The notes: generated by a model not told the origin, from the sequence alone. A stretch of 64,000 nt of DNA from an uncultured Clostridia bacterium (GCA_947382865.1 CANDBF010000002.1:369-64368), one strand, 5' to 3'. Shown: positions 3,207 through 45,682, counted from the first letter of the stretch. Made by a program: numbers and translations.

Positions 3207-3405
3207 ACTTCTGCAACTGCTCACGCTTGATTTCGATGTCGGCAGTGAACGTTCTGAAAAACTGCATATCAGTCTCGTCGGGAGTGCCCTTGCTTATCAG
3301 AGCTTCGATAAGCGAAGCCTGTGAACGGGAACGCTTTATCTCCAAAAGTCTGATTTCCTCTTCAAGAGCATGGATTTCTTTTGCAATTGAGTTTCTCTTT
3401 GACAT
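3178..3405 (-). CDS. Small coiled-coil protein, 75 aa, unknown function
   Basis: ATG preceded by AAGGAGA. Heptad-like sequence EIHALEEEIRLLEIKR...REQLQKLTKQLEGLV. Lies 67 nt downstream of the giant adhesin gene on the same strand. Confidence 0.65.
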   Translation of the reverse strand: MSKRNSIAKEIHALEEEIRLLEIKRSRSQASLIEALISKGTPDETDMQFFRTFTADIEIKREQLQKLTKQLEGLV

Positions 3406-3472
3406 AATAGTGAGTCTCCTTTTTATTTTATATCAGCCGCCAAAAGACCTCCGCTTTTGACCGTATGCCATG

Positions 3473-6400
3473 TTATTGCTCGACGTCGGCTTTCTCTGCT
3501 TCCGCCTTTTCGCGCGCCTCGGCTTCCGCAAGCGACCTCTTTGCCGCTTCCGCTATCTTGTTTGCTCTTACTGCCGCTATGGTCGCGTCGACCGTAGCCT
3601 TTGTACGCATTGCGATGATTGCCTTGCCCGTGAGCATTTGCAGTATGCCTTTTTCATGCAGGATGTACAGCACCGCCGCAACTACGCCCAAGGAGCCTAT
3701 TACTATAAGCAGTATCGCCCACCACGGCAGACCCGGCTTCTCGAAGACCTCGAAGATGAGGAAATCGGAAAGCGCCATATAATCTTCCGTCTCGCCGACG
3801 GTGACCGTAATCATATACTTGCCGACAGCAAGGTCGCCAAGCACATTCACGCCCGTCGCGGAATCATAATACACTTCGTTCTTGTCGAGGTCGGTGACAA
3901 CGATATGAGCTTCGCCCCAGCGCGACGTTGCGGTAGGCAGATTCTCCTCCGCGTTGAACTTGCCCTGCACCCACGTCTGCACTTTAAGCGCGTCGACAAA
4001 TGTGTTCACGCCCTGCAATACTCTGAAACCTACCGTCGCGGGAACCATTTCGTCATAGTTCTGGCTCGCGTCGACAGTGGAAATCAGATAATAGTTGCCG
4101 TAACCCAGCTTGGAAAGGATTTCGGATACCTCCGCCGATACGCGGCCGTCTTCGAGATAAATATGGTCAAGCCCCTCGCAAACGTCAAGCCCCTGCTCGT
4201 CCCTTGCAACCTTAAACCACATATCGCGCGGATTTGCAAGATATCTGGGCGTCGCCACTATGACGTTTATCGTAGAGTCGAAATCGCCGTACTTCCAAGA
4301 CTGAATGCTAGGCACGCGCTCCCAATAGTTCTGCGCCTTCAAAATAGAGAATTCGCCGACCAGCGTCCTCGTACCCGAGAAGTTGCCTATACCCGTTATC
4401 GTCAAATCCGCAGAGCCCGTAACGACGACGCTCGCGCTCGTAAGCAGATAGTCTACGCCTTGAACAAGCGTTTTGCCCTTGTATGCAAGCGTGATTGTAG
4501 GAGTGTTGTTCGCCTCGCCGTTGTAGGTAACCGCGTGCGAGTGCGCGTTGTAGATTATATCCGAAGCCCACGCCGTGTTGCCAGCGTTCGTAAGCGCAGC
4601 CACCTTGACCGTCAGAGGCACTTCCTTGGCGACGGTCGCATACACGATGCCGTGGTCGTTTACGACATTGTCGTTCCACCAATGCGAATGCTCTTCGTCC
4701 GACTGGAAGTCGGGAGCTTCAACTTTGAGAGTATAATTGCCTGCGGACAGCTCGTACAGATAGCCGTAAAGGTTGTATATGCCAGTGGTCGCCTCTTCCG
4801 AAACTTCGCCGCTCGCAAGGTCTACGTCATAGAACATCAGACCGTTTGAAGCAAATTCTACTTTGAATTTGTCAATCGTATTGCCTTCCTTGTCAAGGAA
4901 AGTGTAATACGCCCAGTCGCCGTGCTCGGGACGGTACGCGTACGCGGTGGAGATGAAATTCTTGTCCGCGTAGGTCCATTCCAACTCAGCTCTTTCCGTC
5001 TCGGTGGTACGCACCGCGTTGTGCGCGGTCACGACGTACCACGTTTTGTTCAGCACCATCGTGTTTTCGCCGCTTACCGTCGTAAAATTGCCGCCGAACG
5101 AAATCGTAACGGAGGTCTGTACGGTGTTGATTTTGCCGATTTCCGCGTCCAAAATCAAATTATGGCTATAAGTGATAGTTGAGTTGTTAAGGTATGCGCC
5201 CAGATTGCCGAGATTGCCCACCGCAAAGTCTCTGTCAAGACGCAGGTTCAGCGCATTGTTGCCGCGATAGTACGCGTATGCGTCGTATATCGACGCGTCT
5301 CCGTTGGTCAGGACGCCGTCCACAAGGAAGCTGACGTTTGCGCCGTCCAGAAGCGAAACCTTATCCTCGCCGAAGTACAGCGACCAAAGTCCTGCCGCCG
5401 CGCCCGATTCGAGATCCGCCGCGTCAATGTCTATCGTGATAGGCAGAATGGATACCTGAGAAACCTTATCCTTATTATGAAGAACTGCGTTGCCTTCTCC
5501 GTCGATGCGGACGGTATAATTAAGCGCGTTTACAAAATCCAAGGTCGTCCCGTTGGCGTCGCTGAAAACGAGAGTCAGATGTTCGCTGCGGTCGGGGACG
5601 TCATAACCGTAACCTTCCGCATACACGTACTCTACGTAATCCAGACGGTCTCCGTTCTGATTTCTGATGCTAAGCTTCGCGCGGATATTTGCGCTCTGGT
5701 CGGCGCCGTTGTACAGGAAGCCCGTCGTTGACGACACAAAACCGTTCTCTGCCGCGTTGTAGTATTCCCACTCGACTACGTACGTCAAATCATACGTAAG
5801 CGTAATGGCGAAACCCAACTCCACCGTGCCGGCGTAGTTGCCGATACCGCTTATTACGGCGGAAGCGCCGTCGCCTATATTTACGTTGTTCTTGTATTCA
5901 ACCGAATAGTCGTTGCCAAGGCTCAGACCCGCGTCAGTACCGCTGGGCAAAGTCGCCTTTACCGTCGGCTTTACCTCCTGACCGGAGAAGCCGAAAGACG
6001 TGCAGTTGTTTCCATCGGCGTTGATGAGGTTGAAAATGAAATTCTCTTCAATCGAAGCGGGCGCGACGTAAACTCCGAACGCAACGGTCGCGGAGCCGAC
6101 GGTGAAATCAACGCTATGGATAGAAACGTCCTGTCCGTCATATTTAACGTCGCCGTACTCGTTGGCTTCGTTTACTTCATCGTTCAATTTTATACCGACT
6201 ACCTTTTTCTCGCCGTAGGTAAACGATACGCCGTAGTCCGAAACGGTCACGTAATCGTCTTCGCCTTCGTATTTAACCGACCATTGCAGCGGCGACGTAT
6301 TTTCAAGCGCTATTACGCTGCCGTCGTTTGCAAGCGCTACGCTGTCAGAGACGGAAGTAACGCCGATAGATTTTTGGAAAACCACATTTCTAATTGGGTT

Positions 6401-34929: not shown

Positions 34930-36018
34930 TTAATCGATGTTTTCCAGCATCTTATTCTGCACGGCTATGCGCAACGCCTCTATCATCTCGTCCATTTCGC
35001 CGAGCATAAACTTGTCCAGCGAGTAAAGCGTAAGTCCGATTCTGTGGTCGGTCACGCGCCCCTGCGGGAAGTTGTAGGTACGTATACGCTCGCTTCTGTC
35101 GCCCGTTCCGACCTGCGCGCGACGGTTTTCGGCGTACTCCTTCTGAGCCTGCGACTGGTAGTAGTCGTACACTCTGGATTTAAGCACCTTCATCGCCTTT
35201 TCCCTGTTCTTAATCTGGCTGCGCTCGTCCTGACACTCGACAACTATGCCCGTAGGAAGATGCGTCATACGTATCGCGCTCTCCGTCTTGTTTACGTGCT
35301 GTCCTCCCGCGCCGCCCGAACGGTAGGTATCCACCTTTATGTCGTTCTCGTTGAGGTTGATTTCAACGTCCTGCACCTCGGGAAGCACCGCGACCGTCAC
35401 CGTAGAGGTATGCACTCTTCCCTGCGACTCCGTCTCGGGAACGCGCTGTACGCGGTGCACGCCGCTCTCGTATTTCAGCTTGCCGTACGCGCCCTTGCCC
35501 GATATCATAAACACCAGCTCCTTCGCGCCGCCGAGCTCGGTGTAGTTCATATCCACCTCCTCGACCTTCCAGTTGTTCACGTCGGCATAGTGGCGGTACA
35601 TCTTCATAAGTTCCGTTCCGAACAAAGCCGCCTCGTCTCCTCCCGCGCCCGCGCGTATTTCCATAATGACGTTGTTATCCTCGTTGGGGTCCTTTGGAAG
35701 AAGTGATATTTTTATCTCCTCGATATCCTTTTCGAGCATCGCGCGCAAGCTGTCCGCGTCCGACTTGGCAAGGCTCTTCATTTCGGAGTCCATTTCCGTA
35801 ACCATCATAACGTTGCAATCCTCGAAGTCGCGTTTATGCTTCAAAAACGTCTCGTACTTTTCCACGATAGGCGCAAGATCCGAATGCTCCTTTGACAGCG
35901 AACGGAACCGCTCCTGATCGGCGATGACCTCGGGTTTGGTGAGAAGCACGTTTATAATCTCGTTATAACGCGCCGTAATCTTGTCGAGCTTGGAAATCAA
36001 TCCGTCACTTATTTTCAT
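34930..36018 (-). CDS. prfA: Peptide chain release factor 1
   Basis: [13 protein letters not shown] (GGQ motif) and PET (PxT tripeptide). 362 aa. GAGGAGG RBS inside the prmC 3' end. Confidence 0.93.
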
Positions 36019-37873
36019 TTTTCCTCCTCACGCGGGCTATACGCTCCACGCCCTCCATATCTTTTTCTATCCGTACCTCGAACTTGTCGAAAATACCCTT
36101 TATATCCTCCGCCTGATTTATGCCGAACTCCATCAGCAGAACTCCGTCTTCCGCAAGATGAGCGTTCAGCCCCTCCGCTATGCGGCGGTAAAAATCAAGC
36201 CCGTCCCTTCCGCCGTCGAGAGCGAGCGACGGCTCGAAATTCTTCACCTTTTCGTCGAGGCTCCCGATATCCGCGGTCGGGATGTAAGGCGGATTGGTAA
36301 TTATCACGTCGTAAACGCCCTCCGCTGCGCTCCACAAATCGCCGACGGCAAATTTTATATCTGCGCCCTCGTTGAGCGCGTTCGCCTTTGCCACGTCCAA
36401 CGCCGCGCCGCTTATATCCGTCGCGAGCACATCCGCTCCCGTCTTCTTTGCGATTACGACGGCTATTGCTCCGCTTCCCGTGCACAAATCCAGCGCTTTG
36501 ACGTCTTTTCCGCTCTCCTGTCTGTCCTTAATCTCGGATATAGCCTTTTCGACGAGCTCCTCCGTCTCTGGACGGGGAATTAGCACGTTCTGATTGACGG
36601 CAATCTTAATCCCGTAAAAATCGGCGTTCCCCAGCGCGTATTGCAGAGGCTTTCCGTCCGACATACGCTTCGCTATCTCCGTCGCGCCGTCGAACTGCGC
36701 CTTTGTAAGCGTTTTAAGCTCGGGGAGCTCGCTCCGCTTTACGCCCGTAGTCTCGGCGATAATCCAATCTATATCCGCCTCGTCCGCGCCCTTAGCCAGA
36801 TCCTCCAAACGCTTTCGCGCGACACCGTAGGGCACGCTTATATCGAATTTGCGTTCGGGGAGATTGGGATTCTCGTCCATTTCCATTACGGTCTTAAACG
36901 CGGCGAGCGACACTTCCAGCATATCGTCCGTCGGCTCCTTGGTAGTCAGCTTCTGCAACGCCATCCCCGGCGCGCGCAGAATGCGCACAAACAGGCAGTC
37001 GCTCTTTGCGAGCAGTTTGAGTATCTCATACGACGTTCCCGCCACGACTGGCAGGAACAACAGCTTGAAGCCGAGCTTAATAAGCGCGTCGACGACCTTT
37101 CTGCCGTCGAGCAGATTGCACCTATCCAGCATAAAGTTTATGAGCACGAATACGATTATGCTGACCGCCACCACGAAGAAGAGAAATGTAGTTCCGCAGC
37201 GGCTGTGCTCCCGTCTCATTTTTTTCGCGTTTTCGACGGTAAGGTCGAGCCCGTGCTCGTAACAGCTTATCACCTTATGCTCCGCGCCGTGATACATAAA
37301 CACTCTGCGCACGTCCTTCATAAGCGTGACGAGCAGGATATAGCAGATAAAAATAGTCAGCATAATCCCGCCCTCGATAAGGCTGTACCAAAGGCTTTTG
37401 AGGCTACTCGCGGCTATAACCGCAATGTTGTCGCAGATAAGACTTGCGAGGAAGTTTGGCAAAAACACAAAAAGCCCCACCGCCAGCACGATGCCCAGTA
37501 TCACGGAAAACGCCATAAGCAGATTCATCGGATTGATTTTCAGCTTATCCGCCATCCACTTGTCGAGCTTGGACGGCTCCGCGTAATCCCCGTAGACCTC
37601 GGCGGAGCGCAAAATTATGCCCGTACCCTGAAAGAGCTGGGACACAAGATTGACGACGCCTCTTATAAAGGGCAAGCGGAAGAACACGTTTTTTTCCTTT
37701 GCGCTCTTGATATACTTGCTTTCAATAGTAATATCTCCGCTCGGGGCGCGCACCGCTGTCGCCATCGACCTCGCGCCCTTCATCATAACGCCTTCGAGCA
37801 CCGCCTGTCCGCCTATGGACGTACGCCTTACGGCTTTGGATTTTTGGGTTTTTTCCTTTTTACATTCTGCCAT
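36005..37873 (-). CDS. prmC: Fusion protein: DUF1385 (YqhQ-like membrane domain) + release-factor glutamine methyltransferase PrmC
   Basis: N-terminal part has [14 protein letters not shown], multiple TM helices and [10 protein letters not shown]-terminal part has [11 protein letters not shown] and NPPY. The start ATG 37873 (MAECKKEK...) was chosen over the track's 37972. The gene overlaps prfA by 14 nt. Confidence 0.8.
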
Positions 37874-37944
37874 TTTGTATCGAACCCCGTAAAAACAAGC
37901 GAAACAAAATCCGTATAACTTCGGCGCATATCGCATGAGTGCGC

Positions 37945-37987
37945 CTCGAAAAATAGCAAAATGCAGACACAAACGAGTGTCTGCATT
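37945..37987 (-). terminator. Terminator after rpmE
   Basis: Stem AATGCAGACAC/GTGTCTGCATT (11 bp). On the minus strand it is followed by TTTGCTATTTTTCG. Confidence 0.7.
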
Positions 37988-38324: not shown

Positions 38325-39035
38325 TTACCGGTACAACTCTTTGAGCAGACTTTCCCTCACCTGCGCAAGCGCGCCGTCGCCGAGAGCTCTTTCCTTCTGC
38401 GGCGTATCTATGCTCCCTCCGAACGAAATCCGCGCGGGGCTTCCCGAGAGCACAAAGTATTCGTCCGCAAGCAAAAGACACTCGTCGATGGCGTGGGTCA
38501 CGAAAATCACCGTCCTGTTTTCCTTTTCGTTTAGCCGTACCAGCTGTCTTATAAGCCTCGCCTTCAAAGCGGTGTCCAGAGCCTTGAACGGCTCGTCGAG
38601 CAGCAGAACGTCGCTCGGGTAAAGATACGCCCTCGCCATCGCCGCTCGCTGCGCCTGTCCGCCGCTCAGCATTGTCGGCAGCTTGTAAGCGCAATCGGAA
38701 ATTTCCAGCAAATCCAGCATATCGAGTATGCGGCGTTTGCGTTCGCTTTTGTCCTTAAAAATCGTGCGTAAAATCAAATCAAGGTTTTTATATACCGAAA
38801 TCGTAGGTATCAACCTGTCTTTCTGAAAAATATAGCTTACTCCGTCTCCGGTTTTCTCCACCGTGCCGTCAAATGGAATAAGTCCCGCGACTGCGTTGAG
38901 AAGCGTTGTTTTTCCCACTCCGCTTCCGCCGAGAATGACGCTTATTCTATGCTCGGCAAACTCCGCGGAGAAATCTTCAAGCACTGTTTCGTCGCCGTAT
39001 GAAACGCTCAGATTTTTTATAATCACGCCCGACAT
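38325..39035 (-). CDS. ABC transporter ATP-binding protein (NitT/TauT-type)
   Basis: Start moved from the track's 39272 to ATG 39035 (GGGAGGTG RBS). Motifs GGSGVGKTT, LSGGQAQR and LLLDEP. Confidence 0.88.
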   Translation of the reverse strand: MSGVIIKNLSVSYGDETVLEDFSAEFAEHRISVILGGSGVGKTTLLNAVAGLIPFDGTVEKTGDGVSYIFQKDRLIPTISVYKNLDLILRTIFKDKSERKRRILDMLDLLEISDCAYKLPTMLSGGQAQRAAMARAYLYPSDVLLLDEPFKALDTALKARLIRQLVRLNEKENRTVIFVTHAIDECLLLADEYFVLSGSPARISFGGSIDTPQKERALGDGALAQVRESLLKELYR

Positions 39036-39808
39036 CTCGACACCTCCCACAGCTTCTTGCAGCCTGCCGCAACGGCTTCGAGCACAAAACTGAATACTAT
39101 TGCAATCAGCGTCCAAGCAAGCAGATAGCTCACGTCGAAGGTCGCGTAAGCAATCTGAATATTTGCGCCGATACTGCGCGCGATACTTGTCAGTATTTCG
39201 GCGGCAACCACGACCTTCAACGTGAGCGACAGCGTCGACCTGCCGGTATCGAAAAGATTTTCGGCTATACACGGCAGATAAATAAATCTTATTCTGTCCG
39301 CGGGTCGCACCTTATACAGCCTTGCCATATTCAGCAAATCCCCGTCCACTCCCGTAATCGCGCTGTAAAATGAGGAATACATTATAGGGAACGCAATCAG
39401 AAAGCCTACGACAACGGACATCGAATCGTTGTTCATAAACGCGTAAAGTATGAGTATGACCGCAACCGTCGGCGCGGCGCGCAGCACAGATACTATCGGA
39501 GAGAGCACTCTGTGCAAAGGCTTGCAAAGCCCCGATAGAGCCGCAAGCAAAAGCGCGAGCGCAAACGACGTAAAAAAACAAATAAAAGTTCTCAGCAAGG
39601 TGGCAAGCACGTCAAGCCAGAACCCGCCCGAGGCTCCCAGTCTGAAAAAGGTCGAGAGTACGACGTCCGGCATAGGGAGCACCAGAGGATTGTTTTTTAT
39701 TTTCGCCGCGACAGCCCAAAACGCCAGCATTATCGCAAATGCCAGCAGCGGATAAAAGATATTGAGCGCAATACGCTTCGCCGTCTTTTTATCGGGCTTG
39801 AATTTCAT
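39023..39808 (-). CDS. ABC transporter permease (NitT/TauT-type)
   Basis: 261 aa with about 6 TM helices. Overlaps the ATPase gene start by 13 nt. Confidence 0.8.
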   Translation of the reverse strand: MKFKPDKKTAKRIALNIFYPLLAFAIMLAFWAVAAKIKNNPLVLPMPDVVLSTFFRLGASGGFWLDVLATLLRTFICFFTSFALALLLAALSGLCKPLHRVLSPIVSVLRAAPTVAVILILYAFMNNDSMSVVVGFLIAFPIMYSSFYSAITGVDGDLLNMARLYKVRPADRIRFIYLPCIAENLFDTGRSTLSLTLKVVVAAEILTSIARSIGANIQIAYATFDVSYLLAWTLIAIVFSFVLEAVAAGCKKLWEVSRCRA

Positions 39809-39858: not shown

Positions 39859-40863
39859 TCAGAAAATCTGCTCTTTCGCAAGATCCCAGTTTATATCGTT
39901 CTGCTGGGGATCCTTGGGCATAATGTTTTTGAGGAAGGTTATAATTCTGCTCTTCGTCTGCTCGTCAAGTCTTGTCGCGTTTATCGCGCATCTGGGTATG
40001 GAAGCCGCGGGGAAAACGGCGGACTGATAAAGGTTTGCCTTTGCATATTCCGTGACCGCCGCCGCGTTTGACGTCACCCACGCCTTGCTTGCCGCAAGCG
40101 CGTCGAACAGCGAGTTCATAAAGGTTTCGTTATTTGTAAGCTCAGTGCGCACAAACAGTCCCGCCTGAGGATAGTTCTCTCCGTTTGCGGAGGGATTTAC
40201 GTTCCTGTACTCTGTCTGCAAGTTCATTTCGGCGTTAATTCCGAGTGCCTGAATGCTCTTAAACTGCGTTGCGGCAGGCTCGCCTACAACGGCGAAATCG
40301 GCATTTTTCGCCGCAAGCAATTCCTTTGCTTCCGCGCCATCCGCAACGTACTGCACGAGCGCCTGATTGCCCGTCGGCGTGCCGCTTGAAATAAGCTCTA
40401 TGCCGTTGTTTTTCATAACGTATCTGAACACCAGTCCGGGCACTCCGTTATTCCCGATACAGGCGATTCTCTTGCCCTTGATATCCGCAAAGGTTATCGT
40501 ATTTCCGCCGTCCTTTTTGCCGACCATAAACAGGCTTCCCTCGACGGCAATGCTCACTAGCTTATAAGGCGCGCCCGCCTTAATCTGCATTGCGCCTACG
40601 TTCACGGGCATTATAACGATATCCGACTTATTGGAAGCCATTTCCGCGGCGATGTTGGACGGTGACACCACGGCGTAATTTATCTTTTCGCCGCCGATAC
40701 TTCCGTTGTCCGATACAAGTCTCGCCATCGCGAGGGCGGGAGTGCCTTCGGGAGCGGTAAATCTGAGCCCCTCGTTTTTATCGCACGCAACAAAACCTAT
40801 TGCCATAGCCGCAGCTACGGCGATTACGGCTACGATAGCCATAAGTTTCGCAAATCTTTTCAT
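39859..40863 (-). CDS. ABC transporter substrate-binding lipoprotein (NMT1/THI5/SsuA-like)
   Basis: Start moved from the track's 40980 to ATG 40863 (GAGGTG RBS). N-terminus MKRFAKLMAIVAVIAVAAAMAIGFVAC-DKN carries a lipobox. Confidence 0.75.
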   Translation of the reverse strand: MKRFAKLMAIVAVIAVAAAMAIGFVACDKNEGLRFTAPEGTPALAMARLVSDNGSIGGEKINYAVVSPSNIAAEMASNKSDIVIMPVNVGAMQIKAGAPYKLVSIAVEGSLFMVGKKDGGNTITFADIKGKRIACIGNNGVPGLVFRYVMKNNGIELISSGTPTGNQALVQYVADGAEAKELLAAKNADFAVVGEPAATQFKSIQALGINAEMNLQTEYRNVNPSANGENYPQAGLFVRTELTNNETFMNSLFDALAASKAWVTSNAAAVTEYAKANLYQSAVFPAASIPRCAINATRLDEQTKSRIITFLKNIMPKDPQQNDINWDLAKEQIF

Positions 40864-40963: not shown

Positions 40964-41215
40964 TTAATCTTCGAGTTCAAAAGAAGTGAGCGCGGATTTC
41001 ACGCTCAAATCCCCAAACTGTCCGAGCCTTCCCGTAAGCGCGCAAATGCGCTCCTGCGCGCCCTCTACGATAAGCGCAATCGTATTCACGCCCTCTCTCG
41101 GCACACCCATACGCCCTACTATAATATCCGCAAAATCGCTAAGCACCTTTTGCATTTCTGCGACGACCGAGCGCCCGCCCTTGACAACGATTCCGACCAC
41201 GCCTATTCTTTTCAT
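40964..41215 (-). CDS. Small ACT/CopG-like protein resembling the TM1266 putative iron-only-hydrogenase-system regulator family
   Basis: GGAGG RBS. Sequence MKRIGVVGIVVKGGRSVVAEMQKVLSDFADIIVGRMGVPREGVNTIALIVEGAQERICALTGRLGQFGDLSVKSAL. Family assignment is from memory. Confidence 0.6.
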   Translation of the reverse strand: MKRIGVVGIVVKGGRSVVAEMQKVLSDFADIIVGRMGVPREGVNTIALIVEGAQERICALTGRLGQFGDLSVKSALTSFELED

Positions 41216-41408
41216 AAAGCCTCCGTATTTCCGCGCGATTAAATCCCAAAAAGGATATTAAAAACGCGCCGCCGTGCAAGACGGCAGCGCGTGATTATGC
41301 GCGTATATTTATATCCGTCTTACACTCCGAACCATGTCCCGCACACTCATCGTTTCGGTTTTCACCTCCACTCCGACTTTACTTAGGGACGTTCATCGTT
41401 TTAGATTT
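41216..41408 (-). promoter_or_regulatory. Riboswitch-like leader with intrinsic terminator and antiterminator (class not identified)
   Basis: On the minus strand the terminator is ACGCGCTGCCG-tcttgca-CGGCGGCGCGT followed by TTTTTAATATCCTTTTT (plus coordinates 41245-41292). Upstream GTAAGACGG (41323..41315) is complementary to CCGTCTTGC, which forms the terminator's 5' arm and loop (41284..41276). A closing helix GAACGTCCC/GGGACatGGTTC (41394..41329) encloses a purine-rich hairpin. Confidence 0.55.
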
Positions 41409-41415
41409 CGTCTAT

Positions 41416-41444
41416 ATAATACGTTTCTTTCGCCCGTATGTCAA
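41416..41444 (-). promoter_or_regulatory. Sigma-70-type promoter of the leader/TM1266-like/ABC operon
   Basis: On the minus strand: TTGACA (41444..41439), 17-nt spacer, TATTAT (41421..41416). Confidence 0.65.
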
Positions 41445-41466
41445 GCGAAAGCGCTCAAAAGCTATC

Positions 41467-43236
41467 TCATTCTCCCGTAACGAAGCCGAGAAGCGCCACA
41501 ATTCCGGGCAAAGCGCTTTTTATCAACTCGTCGGTATATGGCTTTGCCTCCTGCTCCGACAGTGAAACCTTGACAAACTGCCAATTCGCGACTGTAAGCA
41601 GCGAATTTCTTATTTCTCCCCCGTCCTCATAAAATTCCGAGATAAACTCGTTTATGTCGGCGGTCGCCTTTGCCATACACTCGGCAACGACAAGGTTGAC
41701 CTTGCGCAAGCCCTCGGTCATATAGTATTCATACCAGAGCGCAGTCTCTTGCACGGAATAAGGATTTCGGATATCGTAGCTCTCGAATGAACACAGATTC
41801 GCAATAAACAACAAATCCGAAAGCTCGGCTTTGCCGACCGTGTAGTCGAAATATCTCTGTTTGAGCTTTTCAAGATAAGGATTGAGGAACAGCACCGTAG
41901 AGAGAATATCCCCCAGCGACTCGTTGTCGATTATATCGGGATGAGCCGCAAGCAAGCCCGTATCCTCGTCGAAGTCGTACAGCACGGATTTTATGTTGAG
42001 CGCGATATCAAGAGCGAAAAGCGGAACGGATTTCTGAAAATCGTTCGCGCTTCTGTCTCCCGCCGCTGAAATAATCCCTTTCAGCTCCGACTGTGTATAG
42101 GTATTCATAACCTCCAACAAAATCTTTGCGGTTATAATGCTTTCGTTTATGCCATTTGAGGTTTCGTTCAGGCTCTCGCTTATATCCGCTATTTCACGCA
42201 TATCGGCGACGAAGCCGTCCGACTTGACCACGTTGCCGGCTGCGGTCACAATATCGCAAATCACGGGAATGACGTCCACAATCGAATATGCGTATTTGGC
42301 GTATCTAACAATTTGGGAATACAGCGCCGAATTTATCGTATCGTCGTCGAATTTTTTTATTATAAGATCGAGAGCCAGATTGAGTTTTGCAAGCGAGGGC
42401 GCGTCCAGCGCGTCTTTAAGGTCGGCAATGTTCAGAAGCAGAGTATCGACAAGCGTAGCAATTTCACCGTCGGTTATATTTTCCAGCGCGCCGCCTCCGC
42501 CAAACAGCGCGTCCAGCATATTATCGCTTATTCCCGTAACCGACGTATTGTACGCAAAAGCCGTAAGCTCGTTAAGCGGCTGCTTGGCATTCGTAAAAGC
42601 CGTCAGCATCTGCTCTCTTTCGCTCGCGCTCGGGATATATGTCGACTTTGCAGAGTTCAGGTTTCCTATATAAATCCCGAGATTTGAATAGGGCTTCACT
42701 CCTATACCCGCTATACCGCGTATTTCGTTCATCCTTGCAATCATAGCGTCAATCGTACTGCCGCCCTTGTCCACAAGCGCGTACATAAGCTCGTAAACGA
42801 GATTGGAAATATCGGTAGGCGTAAACCCTACCTGTCTCACAAGAGTGATCAACAGCTCCGCGTTTGCGGAAAAGTTTTTGATAAGCGACTGACCGTCCTC
42901 CGAAGACATCGCGGTCGCAAGCGCTTTCAGCTTTGCCGTCTGCAAATCCGACTCCAAAAGCGTATCGCAGACAAGCTGCGTCCAGCCCGCCGTAACCACG
43001 TATTCCCCCGCGTCGTCGAGAGCTGCGATTTGCCCGTTTTCAAAGCTCCCCTGCCATTCGGATTTTATGCCGTTGAGAAAGGCGTGCTTCACCGTCGCCA
43101 CGCTCTGCACTCGCTCCTGTCTGTCACGCTCCGCCGCGCTAGGTTTTTTATGACAGGCAAAAAGCGCGCCCGCGCAGGCGACGACGACCAAAACCGCTAG
43201 CAATGCCGATGCAATTTTTTGAAACGCGCTTTTCAT
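41467..43236 (-). CDS. Large alpha-helical lipoprotein (589 aa), unknown; last gene of the MacB-type ABC operon
   Basis: GGAGG RBS. N-terminus MKSAFQKIASALLAVLVVVACAGALFAC-HKK carries a lipobox. It starts 13 nt after the permease stop. Confidence 0.7.
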   Translation of the reverse strand: MKSAFQKIASALLAVLVVVACAGALFACHKKPSAAERDRQERVQSVATVKHAFLNGIKSEWQGSFENGQIAALDDAGEYVVTAGWTQLVCDTLLESDLQTAKLKALATAMSSEDGQSLIKNFSANAELLITLVRQVGFTPTDISNLVYELMYALVDKGGSTIDAMIARMNEIRGIAGIGVKPYSNLGIYIGNLNSAKSTYIPSASEREQMLTAFTNAKQPLNELTAFAYNTSVTGISDNMLDALFGGGGALENITDGEIATLVDTLLLNIADLKDALDAPSLAKLNLALDLIIKKFDDDTINSALYSQIVRYAKYAYSIVDVIPVICDIVTAAGNVVKSDGFVADMREIADISESLNETSNGINESIITAKILLEVMNTYTQSELKGIISAAGDRSANDFQKSVPLFALDIALNIKSVLYDFDEDTGLLAAHPDIIDNESLGDILSTVLFLNPYLEKLKQRYFDYTVGKAELSDLLFIANLCSFESYDIRNPYSVQETALWYEYYMTEGLRKVNLVVAECMAKATADINEFISEFYEDGGEIRNSLLTVANWQFVKVSLSEQEAKPYTDELIKSALPGIVALLGFVTGE

Positions 43237-43249
43237 ACAACCTCCGAAA

Positions 43250-45682
43250 TTATGCTTTTTTGATAGTATAACCTTTTTTGTAGTTTAATGCAACGGGCAT
43301 CAGAGCATACGCGCCGCCCATAGCAAGACCGACAACCGCCGCGACCCATGCTTCATACATAAATTCAAAATAGAGCCCGAACAGTCTCAATGCGTGTATC
43401 AGACAAGCCGTCAGCAGCGCCGACGCGGCAAAGGATATTACAAACGACAGCGCCGCAATAAGAGAATGCTCGAAAATTTCCGAGCGAAGCAGCGCGCGCT
43501 TGGACATACCCGCATTGAGCAGCGCGTTTCTCTGACGCCTTGCCGAGCCCCTGCCTATGAGGGTCGCTGCAACCGTGACGGCAAATATAAACAACGTCAC
43601 AACCACCGCGAGCGTGCCTATCAGATCGAATACGGCGTTTGTGCTCTGCATATCCCATTTATAAGCGGTAAGCACGTCCACGACGTAGTAATTCTTATCC
43701 GCGAATTTTTCTCTCAGCGCGCTGACTGCGCCCGCAACGTCGCCATGAACTGTGACCGCCACCGTATCCGCCCCGACGGCGAAGCTATCGCGAATGACCT
43801 TTTCCGACATAACTATATAATTGCCCGAAAACAGCCTGTGCTTCAAAAGTCCGCCCACCGTCAGCTCGCGGCTCTTGCCGTCTATCGTAAGCACGAGAGT
43901 GTCGCCTTTATCAACGCCGTACAGCTCTTTAAGCGCAATATCGACAAAAATATATGGTTTATCTTCCGAAAGCGACGGCAGAACCTCTTCTTTGGGCGTA
44001 ATAAACTCAAAGTCCACAAGGTTAAGCGCATTCTTGGAGCCGAGAATGTTCATCGTTTTATTGAAATCCCCGTTTGCCAGCTCTCCCTGCTTCCATACGA
44101 TTTTGGTCGCAAACTCAACTCCGTTCACCGTCTCGAAATCGGACGTGTCGACCGTAGACTGCACGTTGGTAACAAACACCATATTCTCGAAATCGGCAAG
44201 GTAATCCGTAAATATTCCCGTAGTCATGGACCACGCCATAAACAACAGCATCGCGACCGTCATTCCGACTCCGAGAATAGCGGCGAACCTCGCAAAACGG
44301 CCGTCTCTTACGATATTCACGCAAGCCGTTCTGACCGCGGGACTTGCGACCTTCCCTACGGGCTTAGCCGAGGCTTTCAAAGCGCAGGGAAGCCCCGTCC
44401 CGAGCGTAGCGAACGTAAGCGCGAGACTTACGACAGACATGGCCGCCGTTGCGCTCGACACTGTAAATTCTACGATGACGGATATGACAGTAAGCGCCGC
44501 AAAGATCGGGAAAAGTATTTTCAAAACGCGCGTGCGCTTGCCCGCGTCTATCTGATTTTGTCTTATCGTCCCTCTGAAAGAACGCAGTATAGGCAACAAA
44601 GAGCTTCCGACAGCCGAAATAAATCCTACCAGCGCGGCGACTATTAATCTCCAAGCGGAAATCCCGAACGCGATGCTCGGCGACAGCGTGGCTTTGAGAA
44701 TGCCGACAAACACTCCGACCGCAAGTCCGCAGCCTATAAGCGAACCCAAAAGCGCAAGAGTCGCGCTCTCCGCAATAAAGATAGCTGCAATCTGTTTCCT
44801 CGTCGCGCCTATGACGGCGTATTTGGAAATAAGCGAAATTTTCTCCTTTTCGCTCATCATAAACAACAGCACGATTACGGCTATGCCCAGCATAAAGACC
44901 GCCGCCCCCGCGAGCACGACGGGCGCGCTGAGAGAGTTTGCCTGCTCTTTTATATAACCGCCGTCGCCCGATCTTCTTACGAGCATAGACGAGTATGCGT
45001 CCATCTCGGATATTGCTTTCACAAGTCCGTCTATATCCGTTCCGTCCGCCGCTTTGACGTATATTTCGTTGCATATACGTCTGGTCGTCACGTTTGCAAG
45101 GAGATGGGATATGCCCTCGATTCTGCCGACGAAAAGAAACGGCGCGTCGCCGAGGAAATAGCCGCTCTTATCCGCGACCGCGCAAACGTAAAAATATGCG
45201 GTCTGCCTGTCCAGCTTCAACTCTATTCTCGCCCCTACGTCCAGACCGAATCTCTCTGCGGCGTCCGCGGAGATGACGATATTATCCGAATTCACGTCGA
45301 GCTCGTCTGCGTCTCCCCGCAGAATATCGAATTTCTGCAACAGCTGCGATTCGCCCTTATCGAAGCCTCTAATCTGCACGTACTCTCCGTCAAGCAGAGC
45401 GTACAGCGTAAGCGACGGGCAAACGAACTCAACTCCGCTCGCATTTTTAAGCGGCTCGGTCACCTGCGTAATGCGGTCCGACGAGGAATTTGTGGCAATG
45501 ACTATATCGCTGTTTCCCGATACGCAGGTCTCCGTAGAATAAATATACTCGTACACCGCGCCGCCGAAGGACAGCATAGCGAAAATCATGGCAACCGAAA
45601 CCGCGACGGCAAGCACCGTCGCCGCCGCTCTGAACGGCTTGGACAATATATTTCTCAGCGCCAGTTTCAACATAAGCGACAC
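43250..45682 (-). CDS. ABC transporter permease with duplicated FtsX/MacB-type domains (810 aa)
   Basis: N-terminus LKLALRNILSKPFRAAATVLAVAVSVAM is typical of the FtsX family. Two TM blocks are separated by large extracytoplasmic regions. GTG start at 45682, or ATG at 45673. Confidence 0.8.
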   Translation of the reverse strand: MSLMLKLALRNILSKPFRAAATVLAVAVSVAMIFAMLSFGGAVYEYIYSTETCVSGNSDIVIATNSSSDRITQVTEPLKNASGVEFVCPSLTLYALLDGEYVQIRGFDKGESQLLQKFDILRGDADELDVNSDNIVISADAAERFGLDVGARIELKLDRQTAYFYVCAVADKSGYFLGDAPFLFVGRIEGISHLLANVTTRRICNEIYVKAADGTDIDGLVKAISEMDAYSSMLVRRSGDGGYIKEQANSLSAPVVLAGAAVFMLGIAVIVLLFMMSEKEKISLISKYAVIGATRKQIAAIFIAESATLALLGSLIGCGLAVGVFVGILKATLSPSIAFGISAWRLIVAALVGFISAVGSSLLPILRSFRGTIRQNQIDAGKRTRVLKILFPIFAALTVISVIVEFTVSSATAAMSVVSLALTFATLGTGLPCALKASAKPVGKVASPAVRTACVNIVRDGRFARFAAILGVGMTVAMLLFMAWSMTTGIFTDYLADFENMVFVTNVQSTVDTSDFETVNGVEFATKIVWKQGELANGDFNKTMNILGSKNALNLVDFEFITPKEEVLPSLSEDKPYIFVDIALKELYGVDKGDTLVLTIDGKSRELTVGGLLKHRLFSGNYIVMSEKVIRDSFAVGADTVAVTVHGDVAGAVSALREKFADKNYYVVDVLTAYKWDMQSTNAVFDLIGTLAVVVTLFIFAVTVAATLIGRGSARRQRNALLNAGMSKRALLRSEIFEHSLIAALSFVISFAASALLTACLIHALRLFGLYFEFMYEAWVAAVVGLAMGGAYALMPVALNYKKGYTIKKA

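Follow-up and report, generated by a model that had tools for sequence, protein, structure and literature searches.

Which molecule reads a leader that carries its own transcription switch? The question is raised by a 64,000-nucleotide (nt) stretch of DNA from an uncultured Clostridia bacterium (GCA_947382865.1, CANDBF010000002.1:369-64368), hereafter the window, in which a leader of about 195 nt, ending at the ATG at 41215, precedes the gene of a TM1266-like protein and those of a NitT/TauT-type ATP-binding cassette (ABC) transporter. The leader, its attenuator and the operon all lie on the minus strand. The original prediction, drawn from the sequence alone, had placed a terminator/antiterminator switch and an aptamer of no recognisable class in this leader. 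Our comparative analysis indicates that the leader very probably contains a new attenuator RNA with terminator/antiterminator logic, and we tentatively propose the TM1266-like protein as the molecule that reads it.

The leader is preceded by a near-consensus promoter (TTGACA-17-TATTAT, matching the consensus at 11 out of 12 positions), as originally read, and the predicted transcription start lies at about 41409. An equivalent promoter is found in related loci, with its -10 element ending 7-9 nt 5' of a conserved AAUC. To gather these loci, we used homologues of the substrate-binding protein (SBP) of the operon, retrieving 78 from species-representative genomes, mostly metagenome-assembled genomes labelled Christensenella, Christensenellales or Clostridia. 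The TM1266-like gene was located directly 5' of the SBP gene in 67 out of 78. An nhmmer search with the window leader recovered a conserved leader in over 30 of the species-level genomes (E<0.01), with matches extending from approximately the predicted transcription start to the terminator. A covariance model (R1) gave a single match in the 64-kb window (89.8 bits, E 8e-19) and about 50 in related loci, all on the gene strand and upstream of the TM1266-like gene. The R1 matches all occupy the same position relative to the gene, and the conservation of the leader exceeds chance.

A census based on the box motifs described below detected the element upstream of 89 out of 101 TM1266-like genes, most of the remainder being contig ends. 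In three loci in which a TM1266-like gene is followed by an SBP gene (L004, L011 and L075), a box motif is clearly not recognisable within 600 nt upstream; these leaders may have been rearranged or replaced. A metagenome scan with the RNA pattern returned 42 matches, 39 of which belong to the same operon type, and the other three (L084, L110 and L113) are chance matches within unrelated sequence. Of these 39, every one with enough downstream sequence to judge contains the promoter, the motif, the terminator and the TM1266-like gene, and the longer ones extend into the SBP, permease and ATPase genes. Altogether, about 73 distinct leaders were obtained from Christensenellales-type genomes and metagenomes, with the motif always directly upstream of a TM1266-like first gene. 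No other gene context was found in approximately 90 instances from the loci and the metagenome scan, and the genes neighbouring the motif upstream differ between loci.

The defining feature of the element, absent from the original prediction, is a pair of repeated boxes, A (AAACGAUG) and B (CGGAGUG). Both are invariant in the alignment, and the window has two copies of each, arranged A1...B1...A2...B2. The boxes are nested: helix P1 is formed by A1 and B2, and its inverted copy P3 by B1 and A2. The pairs of P1 are, in order, A-U, C-G, G.A, A.G, U.G and G-C, and every box helix consists of C-G, tandem G.A/A.G, U.G and G-C together with one covarying pair. In P1, this outer pair is A-U in 38 sequences, U-A in 9 and G-C in 2 (alignment A4), and in P3 it changes from U-A to C-G in 9 sequences. 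The nesting follows from six leaders (L002, L046, L048, L036, L041 and L044) in which the inner covarying pair is C-G while the outer one is A-U, which rules out a side-by-side arrangement (A1/B1, A2/B2). The full order of the element is 5' tail, box A1, P2, box B1, P4 hairpin, box A2, P2', box B2 and UAAGACGG. P2 is a variable helix that separates the box helices and has compensatory changes in all four modelled pairs. P4 is a GG..CC hairpin capping the whole structure, and its third pair occurs as U-A, A-U, G-C and C-G, with 19 double changes. Each strand reads 'A box, P2 arm, B box', and the element therefore has pseudo-two-fold symmetry. The 5' tail of the window forms the 5' strand of an internal loop or of a weak closing helix (P0) of at most 3 bp, in which AUC (41406-41404) could pair with GAU (41314-41312).

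In a MAFFT alignment unfitted to the structure (A3), 87.7% of the structure cells were paired, compared with 26-48% when the partners were slid. The covariation score was 0.287, against 0.10 or less for the slid partners, and none of 500 shuffles reached the observed value. In the model-fitted alignment A4, comprising 53 leaders, 92.4% of the cells were paired and compensatory changes occurred in 11 out of 18 pairs. RNAalifold independently recovered P3, P4 and the antiterminator. The 5' leader thus contains a conserved structured element with covarying helices, a general feature of riboswitches. The homologous operons bear out most of the architecture first proposed: the aptamer helices, the terminator and the antiterminator are supported by covariation, and the outer helix GAAC..GUCCC/GGGAC..GUUC corresponds to a P1 extension plus P2. 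The proposed inner helix UCGG/CCGA has to be abandoned, since it conflicts with P3 and P4; covariation supports instead the pairing of CGGAGU (41375-41370) with ACGAUG (41353-41348) and a GGU/ACC hairpin (41366-41357).

Two size classes were observed among the distinct leaders, about 41 long forms of the window type (approximately 97 nt) and about 32 short forms of 41-46 nt. The short forms consist only of A1, a small loop and B2, and have a single box helix. Their closing helix P0 is variable and, read by eye, appears to covary, with examples including CGUAA/UUACG, CGUAA/UUGCG, UAAAA/UUUUA, CGUGA/UUACG, UGC/GCA, ACGC/GCGU, CUGC/GCAG and AGUCGU/ACGAUU. Within P0 lies an internal loop composed of the invariant strand (AAU)CC-N-AA(A/U) and the strand G(U/C)AAG(ACG), and this loop is followed by P1.

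Downstream of the element, the strong intrinsic terminator expected from the original reading was found, with a 12-bp stem containing 9 G-C pairs, a 5-nt loop and the run UUUUU. An intrinsic terminator separates the motif from the start codon in 72 out of 73 distinct leaders (median -15.8 kcal/mol). In the unfitted alignment A2 of 28 leaders, 83.3% of the terminator helix is paired, with compensatory changes in 10 out of 12 pairs. The complementarity between GUAAGACGG and CCGUCUUGC from which an antiterminator had been proposed is real and extends to 11 bp, pairing GUGUAAGACGG with CCGUCUUGCAC. The former strand comprises the last three bases of box B2 and a conserved UAAGACG(R); the latter runs from the end of the terminator 5' arm through the loop into the 3' arm, covering its first two bases. 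In the 28 leaders, 91.2% of the antiterminator is paired in register, compared with 28-57% when slid, and slid-partner controls for terminator and antiterminator together left 26-57% of the cells paired. A shuffle test of the antiterminator complementarity gave a median z of -1.2, but this was a weak control, as the tested segment did not cover the whole strand in one subgroup, and we rely on the pair counts instead. The leader, as originally claimed, carries a mutually exclusive terminator/antiterminator expression platform, a further general feature of riboswitches. A direct repeat, ACGCGC-AUAAUC-ACGCGC, lies between the antiterminator strand and the terminator (41293-41306, minus strand). 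Its first copy could pair with the terminator 3' end GCGCGU; alternatively, a small GCGC...GCGC hairpin could arise from both copies within the antiterminator loop. A similar GCG-rich spacer element is present in several long-form relatives, such as L001 and L010.

Predicted folding energies in the window were -5.1 kcal/mol for the box helix alone, -17.0 kcal/mol for the antiterminator duplex and -23.5 kcal/mol for the terminator arms. In the nascent transcript, the aptamer combined with a 9-bp antiterminator (-40.9 kcal/mol) and the 11-bp antiterminator (-41.8 kcal/mol) are nearly isoenergetic; in the full leader, the values are -48.3 kcal/mol for aptamer plus terminator and -45.7 kcal/mol for the antiterminator fold. 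According to these models, the switch is finely balanced, and the sensor fold needs outside help to win. Its direction was assessed from variants. In five leaders (L019, L020, L023, L066 and L072) the terminator 5' arm has the sequence CUCCGA, which complements box B2 directly, and the minimum-energy fold of the nascent transcript pairs B2 with this arm, destroying P1. In the short forms, P0, as read by eye, encloses the whole antiterminator strand. Since the antiterminator strand is made up of the 3' box strand with its tail, a stabilised box helix should give termination, that is, an OFF switch.

No Rfam 15 covariance model matched at gathering thresholds across the 64-kb window. Relaxing the threshold to E<=10 over the region 41150-41520 yielded just TarB, CRISPR-DR25 and rli40 at 13-14 bits, which is chance level, and only chance matches were obtained for the short form L019. 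The leader matches no Rfam family, in line with the original by-eye comparison; this includes TPP, guanidine-I/II/III/IV, NMT1/xanthine, HMP-PP thiS, the SAM classes, glycine, ZTP, Moco, cobalamin, T-box and the PyrR site. The T-box model RF00230 gave no match in this region even at E<=10, and the antiterminator is an uninterrupted 11-bp helix. A full-text literature search found no description of the leader motif or of TM1266-family attenuation. A terminator/antiterminator leader with a structured sensor is a well-known kind of system; the sensor motif itself appears undescribed, being absent from Rfam 15 and the searchable literature, and, to the best of our knowledge, TM1266/ACT-fold proteins had not before been linked to attenuators at the level of the family.

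The first gene of the operon encodes the TM1266-like protein, and profile and domain matches agree with the original assignment of this gene and of the NitT/TauT-type ABC genes that follow it. The structure model of the protein has an ACT or NikR-C-like ferredoxin fold (pLDDT 90.7). Its nearest structures in a Foldseek search are 2NZC, an entry with four chains released in 2006, the NikR C-domain, ACT domains and the PII-like SbtB. In 44 out of 48 loci, no other operon protein is as well conserved, and its median identity is 75.6%, compared with 64.2% for the permease, 60.5% for the ATPase and 54.7% for the SBP. Across motif-bearing loci, SBP identity falls as low as 28% and many SBPs are circularly permuted, and the TM1266-like gene is always first. 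Two SBP forms occur behind the same motif, one in L080, L081, L085 and L087 and the other in the window (39859-40863), L106 and L111. In one form, the half containing '...YVADGAAA..VDF.VVGEPAAT...' comes first; in the other, it is the half containing 'APEGTPALA...VIMPVNAGANLI'. A sequence search of the PDB with the SBP found only 3HN0, an entry of unknown function, and the Foldseek neighbours of the SBP model share 12-19% identity with it and bind mixed ligands. Neither the gene neighbourhood nor the SBP fold provided a clue to the ligand.

TM1266-family proteins are annotated only as 'putative iron-only hydrogenase system regulator'. Wherever we examined their genes elsewhere, in two operon types, each was the first gene behind a terminator-containing leader. 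The hydrogenase-type loci came from a Thermotoga-type locus (L129), Thermotoga sp., Pseudothermotoga, Marinitoga, Petrotoga, Cloacimonas and a metagenomic lineage, and in them the TM1266-family gene is followed by HydG and in most also by HydE and HydF. Their leaders contain a strong terminator and an upstream strand complementary to its 5' arm, such as CACCGAGGAAGGGG in L121, which is complementary to CCCCUUCCUUGGUG of that arm. The conserved core, CUGAG-RUR-RAGG ... CUGAC-AYC-RAGG, is able to fold into a pseudo-symmetric duplex that contains purine-purine mismatches. In 7 sequences, pairing is 100% at each of the 8 modelled pairs, and GGUG/CACC, GAUG/CAUC and GAUA/UAUC occur as covarying alternatives; the 3' strand of the duplex with its tail once more serves as the antiterminator strand. 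No Rfam family matched these leaders, nor did R1.

Three further Clostridia, all cultured, carry distant TM1266-family genes, each preceded by a promoter-like site and a leader that contains an intrinsic terminator. In Monoglobus pectinilyticus (L132, 3256-3476) the gene is followed by HydG, in Acetoanaerobium noterae (L134, ~3218-3500) by HydE-like and HydG-like genes, and in Vescimonas fastidiosa MM35 (L133, 3324-3500, NZ_AP023416.1) by an SBP 23% identical to that of the window, a permease and an ATPase. A 'CUGA...RAAG' motif read by eye in these three leaders could not be confirmed, as the second covariance model, R2, did not match them. A single motif shared by all TM1266 leaders was rejected, since R1 misses the hydrogenase type and R2 misses the leaders of Monoglobus, Vescimonas and Acetoanaerobium. 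At the sequence level, there are at least three leader types across TM1266-family genes, and leader sequence varies with the protein lineage, not with the cargo genes.

These observations bear on the identity of the effector. We slightly favour, as a tentative reading short of an even chance, a leader bound by the TM1266-like protein, forming an attenuator that shuts the operon off, over direct sensing by the RNA. The box helix is weak alone, and an effector stabilising the folded element would hold the GUGUAAGACGG strand, so that the terminator would form and transcription would stop before the TM1266-like gene; without the effector, this strand would pair with the terminator 5' arm and loop, and the operon would be transcribed. 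The effector would most likely be the 83-amino-acid (aa) ACT-fold protein, assembled as an oligomer on the repeated boxes and probably loaded with the transported compound or a derivative, and the outcome would be negative autoregulation, as with PyrR on the pyr leader. This reading is slightly favoured because TM1266-family genes near HydG/E/F and in a distant ABC operon are likewise first behind terminator leaders of other types. A first-gene position in two operon types, leaders that follow the protein lineage, repeated purine-mismatch helices and a well-conserved protein are as expected if the protein binds its own leader, in the manner of the first-gene regulators PyrR, HutP and BglG; several independent metabolite aptamers, all linked to the same small gene, would account for them less readily. 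Over the distances at which TM1266 leaders diverge, metabolite aptamers usually remain conserved. Repeated or pseudo-symmetric sites also suit an oligomeric binder, and the 2NZC entry contains four chains. The leader combines a terminator/antiterminator with repeated elements, and a cognate regulator gene strictly co-occurs with the RNA, both of which are features of protein-dependent attenuation. Several points weigh against binding by this protein, however. Pfam and NCBIfam searches returned TM1266-like families only, and no known RNA-binding family or fold. The protein is approximately neutral by its count of K+R versus D+E, its nearest structures (NikR C-domain, ACT, PII-like) are all small-molecule or metal sensors, and we know of no ACT-fold protein that binds RNA. 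The short forms, with their one box helix, indicate that two sites are not required, and neither R1 nor R2 matches the Monoglobus, Vescimonas and Acetoanaerobium leaders. True riboswitches can also be tightly coupled to one gene family, as in yjdF and crcB, and the ACT protein could act as a trans regulatory subunit of the transporter, whose ATPase lacks a regulatory domain, or of HydG. Furthermore, nothing on paper prevents the aptamer fold of the window from forming alongside a 9-bp antiterminator, the overlap being only 2-3 bp, so that the OFF direction is drawn from the variants.

An alternative would be a new class of riboswitch that senses a metabolite or ion directly, an explanation we consider less probable, at about one chance in three. 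Its pocket would be formed by the internal loop and the tandem-G.A box helix, and the ligand would hold GUGUAAGACGG so that the terminator forms. The TM1266-like protein would then be a separate ACT-type sensor of the same or a related compound, for example a subunit for trans-inhibition of the importer or of HydG. Dense conservation, structure from the transcription start, covarying helices and a classic expression platform are all consistent with this, as are the frequency of NMT1-like importers among riboswitch targets, the fact that ACT domains are known only as small-molecule sensors and the ATPase without a regulatory domain of its own. The size and the architecture of hairpin, conserved internal loop and helix recall the xanthine/NMT1, THF-II and HMP-PP classes, and parallel sensing by RNA and ACT domains has precedents in the lysine riboswitch with ACT-containing LysC and the SAM riboswitch with the MetN C2 domain. 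However, the TM1266-like gene is the sole context in about 90 instances, at least three unrelated-looking terminator leaders on one protein family in two operon types would require several independent classes, the conserved core is a duplicated helix and not a multi-helix junction, and neighbourhood and SBP fold suggest no ligand. It is unlikely that another trans-acting factor reads the leader, be it a protein encoded elsewhere, a tRNA or small RNA, or RNA polymerase pausing with NusA/NusG, the boxes being a structural, pause or processing element. Conserved tandem G.A helices are typical recognition sites of many RNA-binding proteins, but the leader lacks T-box, PyrR, ANTAR and RAT-like features, Rfam yielded no match, no further conserved regulator gene lies nearby among the varying upstream neighbours, and the strict linkage to the TM1266-like gene would be left unexplained. 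Ribosome-mediated attenuation through a leader peptide starting at the AUG within box A1 is highly improbable. This AUG does open a 5-codon frame in the window (AUG AAC GUC CCU AAG UAA), but it is not preceded by a Shine-Dalgarno sequence, the frame, length and codons are not conserved, changes in the P2 region are compensatory and not synonymous, and box A2, within the structure, contains this AUG as well.

Extending the protein-bound reading to the whole family calls for somewhat greater reserve. TM1266-family proteins might be attenuation proteins of a new, RNA-binding and ligand-responsive family. The gene of each would come first behind its leader, and each protein would bind box helices rich in purine-purine mismatches to force termination; the family might thereby control hydG/E/F operons and NMT1-type importers across Thermotogae, Cloacimonadota and Clostridia.

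A close parallel is PyrR on the Bacillus pyr operon, where, as proposed here, the regulator is the product of the first gene behind the attenuator and the outcome is negative feedback. In both, the effector would stabilise an anti-antiterminator whose 3' strand overlaps the antiterminator, leading to termination. PyrR, however, has a PRTase fold and a defined binding loop (ARUCCAGAGAGGYU), whereas the candidate here has an ACT fold without known RNA binding, and the PyrR site model (RF00515) had no match in the window and scored 20.5 against 54 bits on a hydrogenase-type leader. The quasi-symmetric hairpin with two similar internal loops resembles the RAT site, which is bound by a homodimer of the LicT/BglG family, whose gene is often the first behind the target. 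The RAT is itself the antiterminator and protein binding turns it ON, whereas the motif described here competes with the antiterminator; there are also no CAT/PRD domains here. TRAP and HutP resemble what is proposed for the TM1266-like candidate in their small size (75-150 aa), oligomeric state and ligand activation, acting on repeated leader RNA elements in a terminator versus antiterminator choice; however, their folds are different, their sites are single-stranded GAG/UAG triplet repeats instead of structured box helices, and HutP promotes read-through. Among riboswitches, the xanthine/NMT1, THF-II folE and HMP-PP thiS classes are similar in combining a short hairpin, interrupted by a conserved internal loop, with a terminator platform and NMT1/THI5-like transport genes, but none of their Rfam models matched, and the element differs in its duplicated tandem-G.A core and single gene context.

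If the element is a riboswitch, it represents a new class in abundant, poorly studied human and animal gut Clostridia (Christensenellales), and its ligand would reveal the cargo of a widespread uncharacterised importer. If the TM1266-like protein reads the leader, the ACT fold gains an RNA-binding function not described before, and the TM1266 family, with its structure 2NZC, would acquire a testable function that includes control of the [FeFe]-hydrogenase maturation genes, whose regulation is largely unknown. Under either reading, the element is small (approximately 45-100 nt), well defined by covariation and easily testable.

Table 1. Coordinates of the leader, attenuator and operon features in the window, followed by those of hydrogenase-type leaders in their own loci.
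Feature	Position	Strand	Details
Sigma-70-type promoter	41416..41444	-	-35 TTGACA 41444-41439; 17-nt spacer; -10 TATTAT 41421-41416
Sensor element, long form	41313..41411	-	match of covariance model R1; structure 87.7% paired (A3), 92.4% (A4)
5' tail AAAUC (AAUC)	41404..41408	-	near-invariant columns in alignments A2/A3
Box A1 AAACGAUG	41394..41401	-	invariant columns
5' strands of P1 extension (AAC 41393-41391) and P2 (GUCCC 41390-41386)	41386..41393	-	partners 41332-41330 and 41340-41336
Box B1 CGGAGUG	41369..41375	-	RNAalifold prediction and compensatory changes
P4 capping hairpin GGU-GAAA-ACC	41357..41366	-	covariation
Box A2 AAACGAUG	41348..41355	-	alignment, RNAalifold, pair counts
3' strands of P2 (GGGAC 41340-41336) and P1 extension (GUU 41332-41330), with AUG bulge between them	41330..41340	-	covariation
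Box B2 CGGAGUG, 3' strand of P1	41323..41329	-	last three bases common to antiterminator
Antiterminator strand GUGUAAGACGG	41315..41325	-	partner CCGUCUUGCAC 41284-41274
Intrinsic terminator	41259..41292	-	stem ACGCGCUGCCGU / ACGGCGGCGCGU (41292-41264), loop CUUGC, then UUUUU
Shine-Dalgarno GGAGG (41224-41220) and ATG (41215-41213) of first gene	41213..41224	-	sequence
TM1266-like protein, 83 aa, first gene	40964..41215	-	PF21699 75 bits, TIGR03959 74 bits
NMT1/THI5-like substrate-binding lipoprotein (SBP), ~334 aa	39859..40863	-	start inferred from homologues
ABC permease, NitT/TauT type	39023..39808	-	domain matches
ABC ATPase, ~236 aa from MSGVIIKNL	38325..39038	-	domain matches; without C-terminal regulatory domain
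Hydrogenase-type leader, L121	3907-3995
Hydrogenase-type leader, L122	3892-3998
Hydrogenase-type leader, L123	3896-3995
Hydrogenase-type leader, L125	2384-2500
Hydrogenase-type leader, L126	2371-2500
Hydrogenase-type leader, L128	2404-2497
Hydrogenase-type leader, L129	2491-2590

Two observations concern the surroundings of the operon. Immediately upstream of the leader promoter lies a 589-aa open reading frame (ORF; 41467-43236, minus strand), for which Pfam and NCBIfam gave no match at E<=0.001; the gene before it encodes an 810-aa MacB/FtsX-like permease (43250-45682). A 655-aa ORF at 36005-37972 (minus strand), directly upstream of prfA (34930-36018), joins DUF1385 (residues 100-364) to the release-factor methyltransferase PrmC (residues ~385-650), and is either a fusion of usually separate genes or an artefact of ORF calling, in which the longest frame with a TTG start was chosen.

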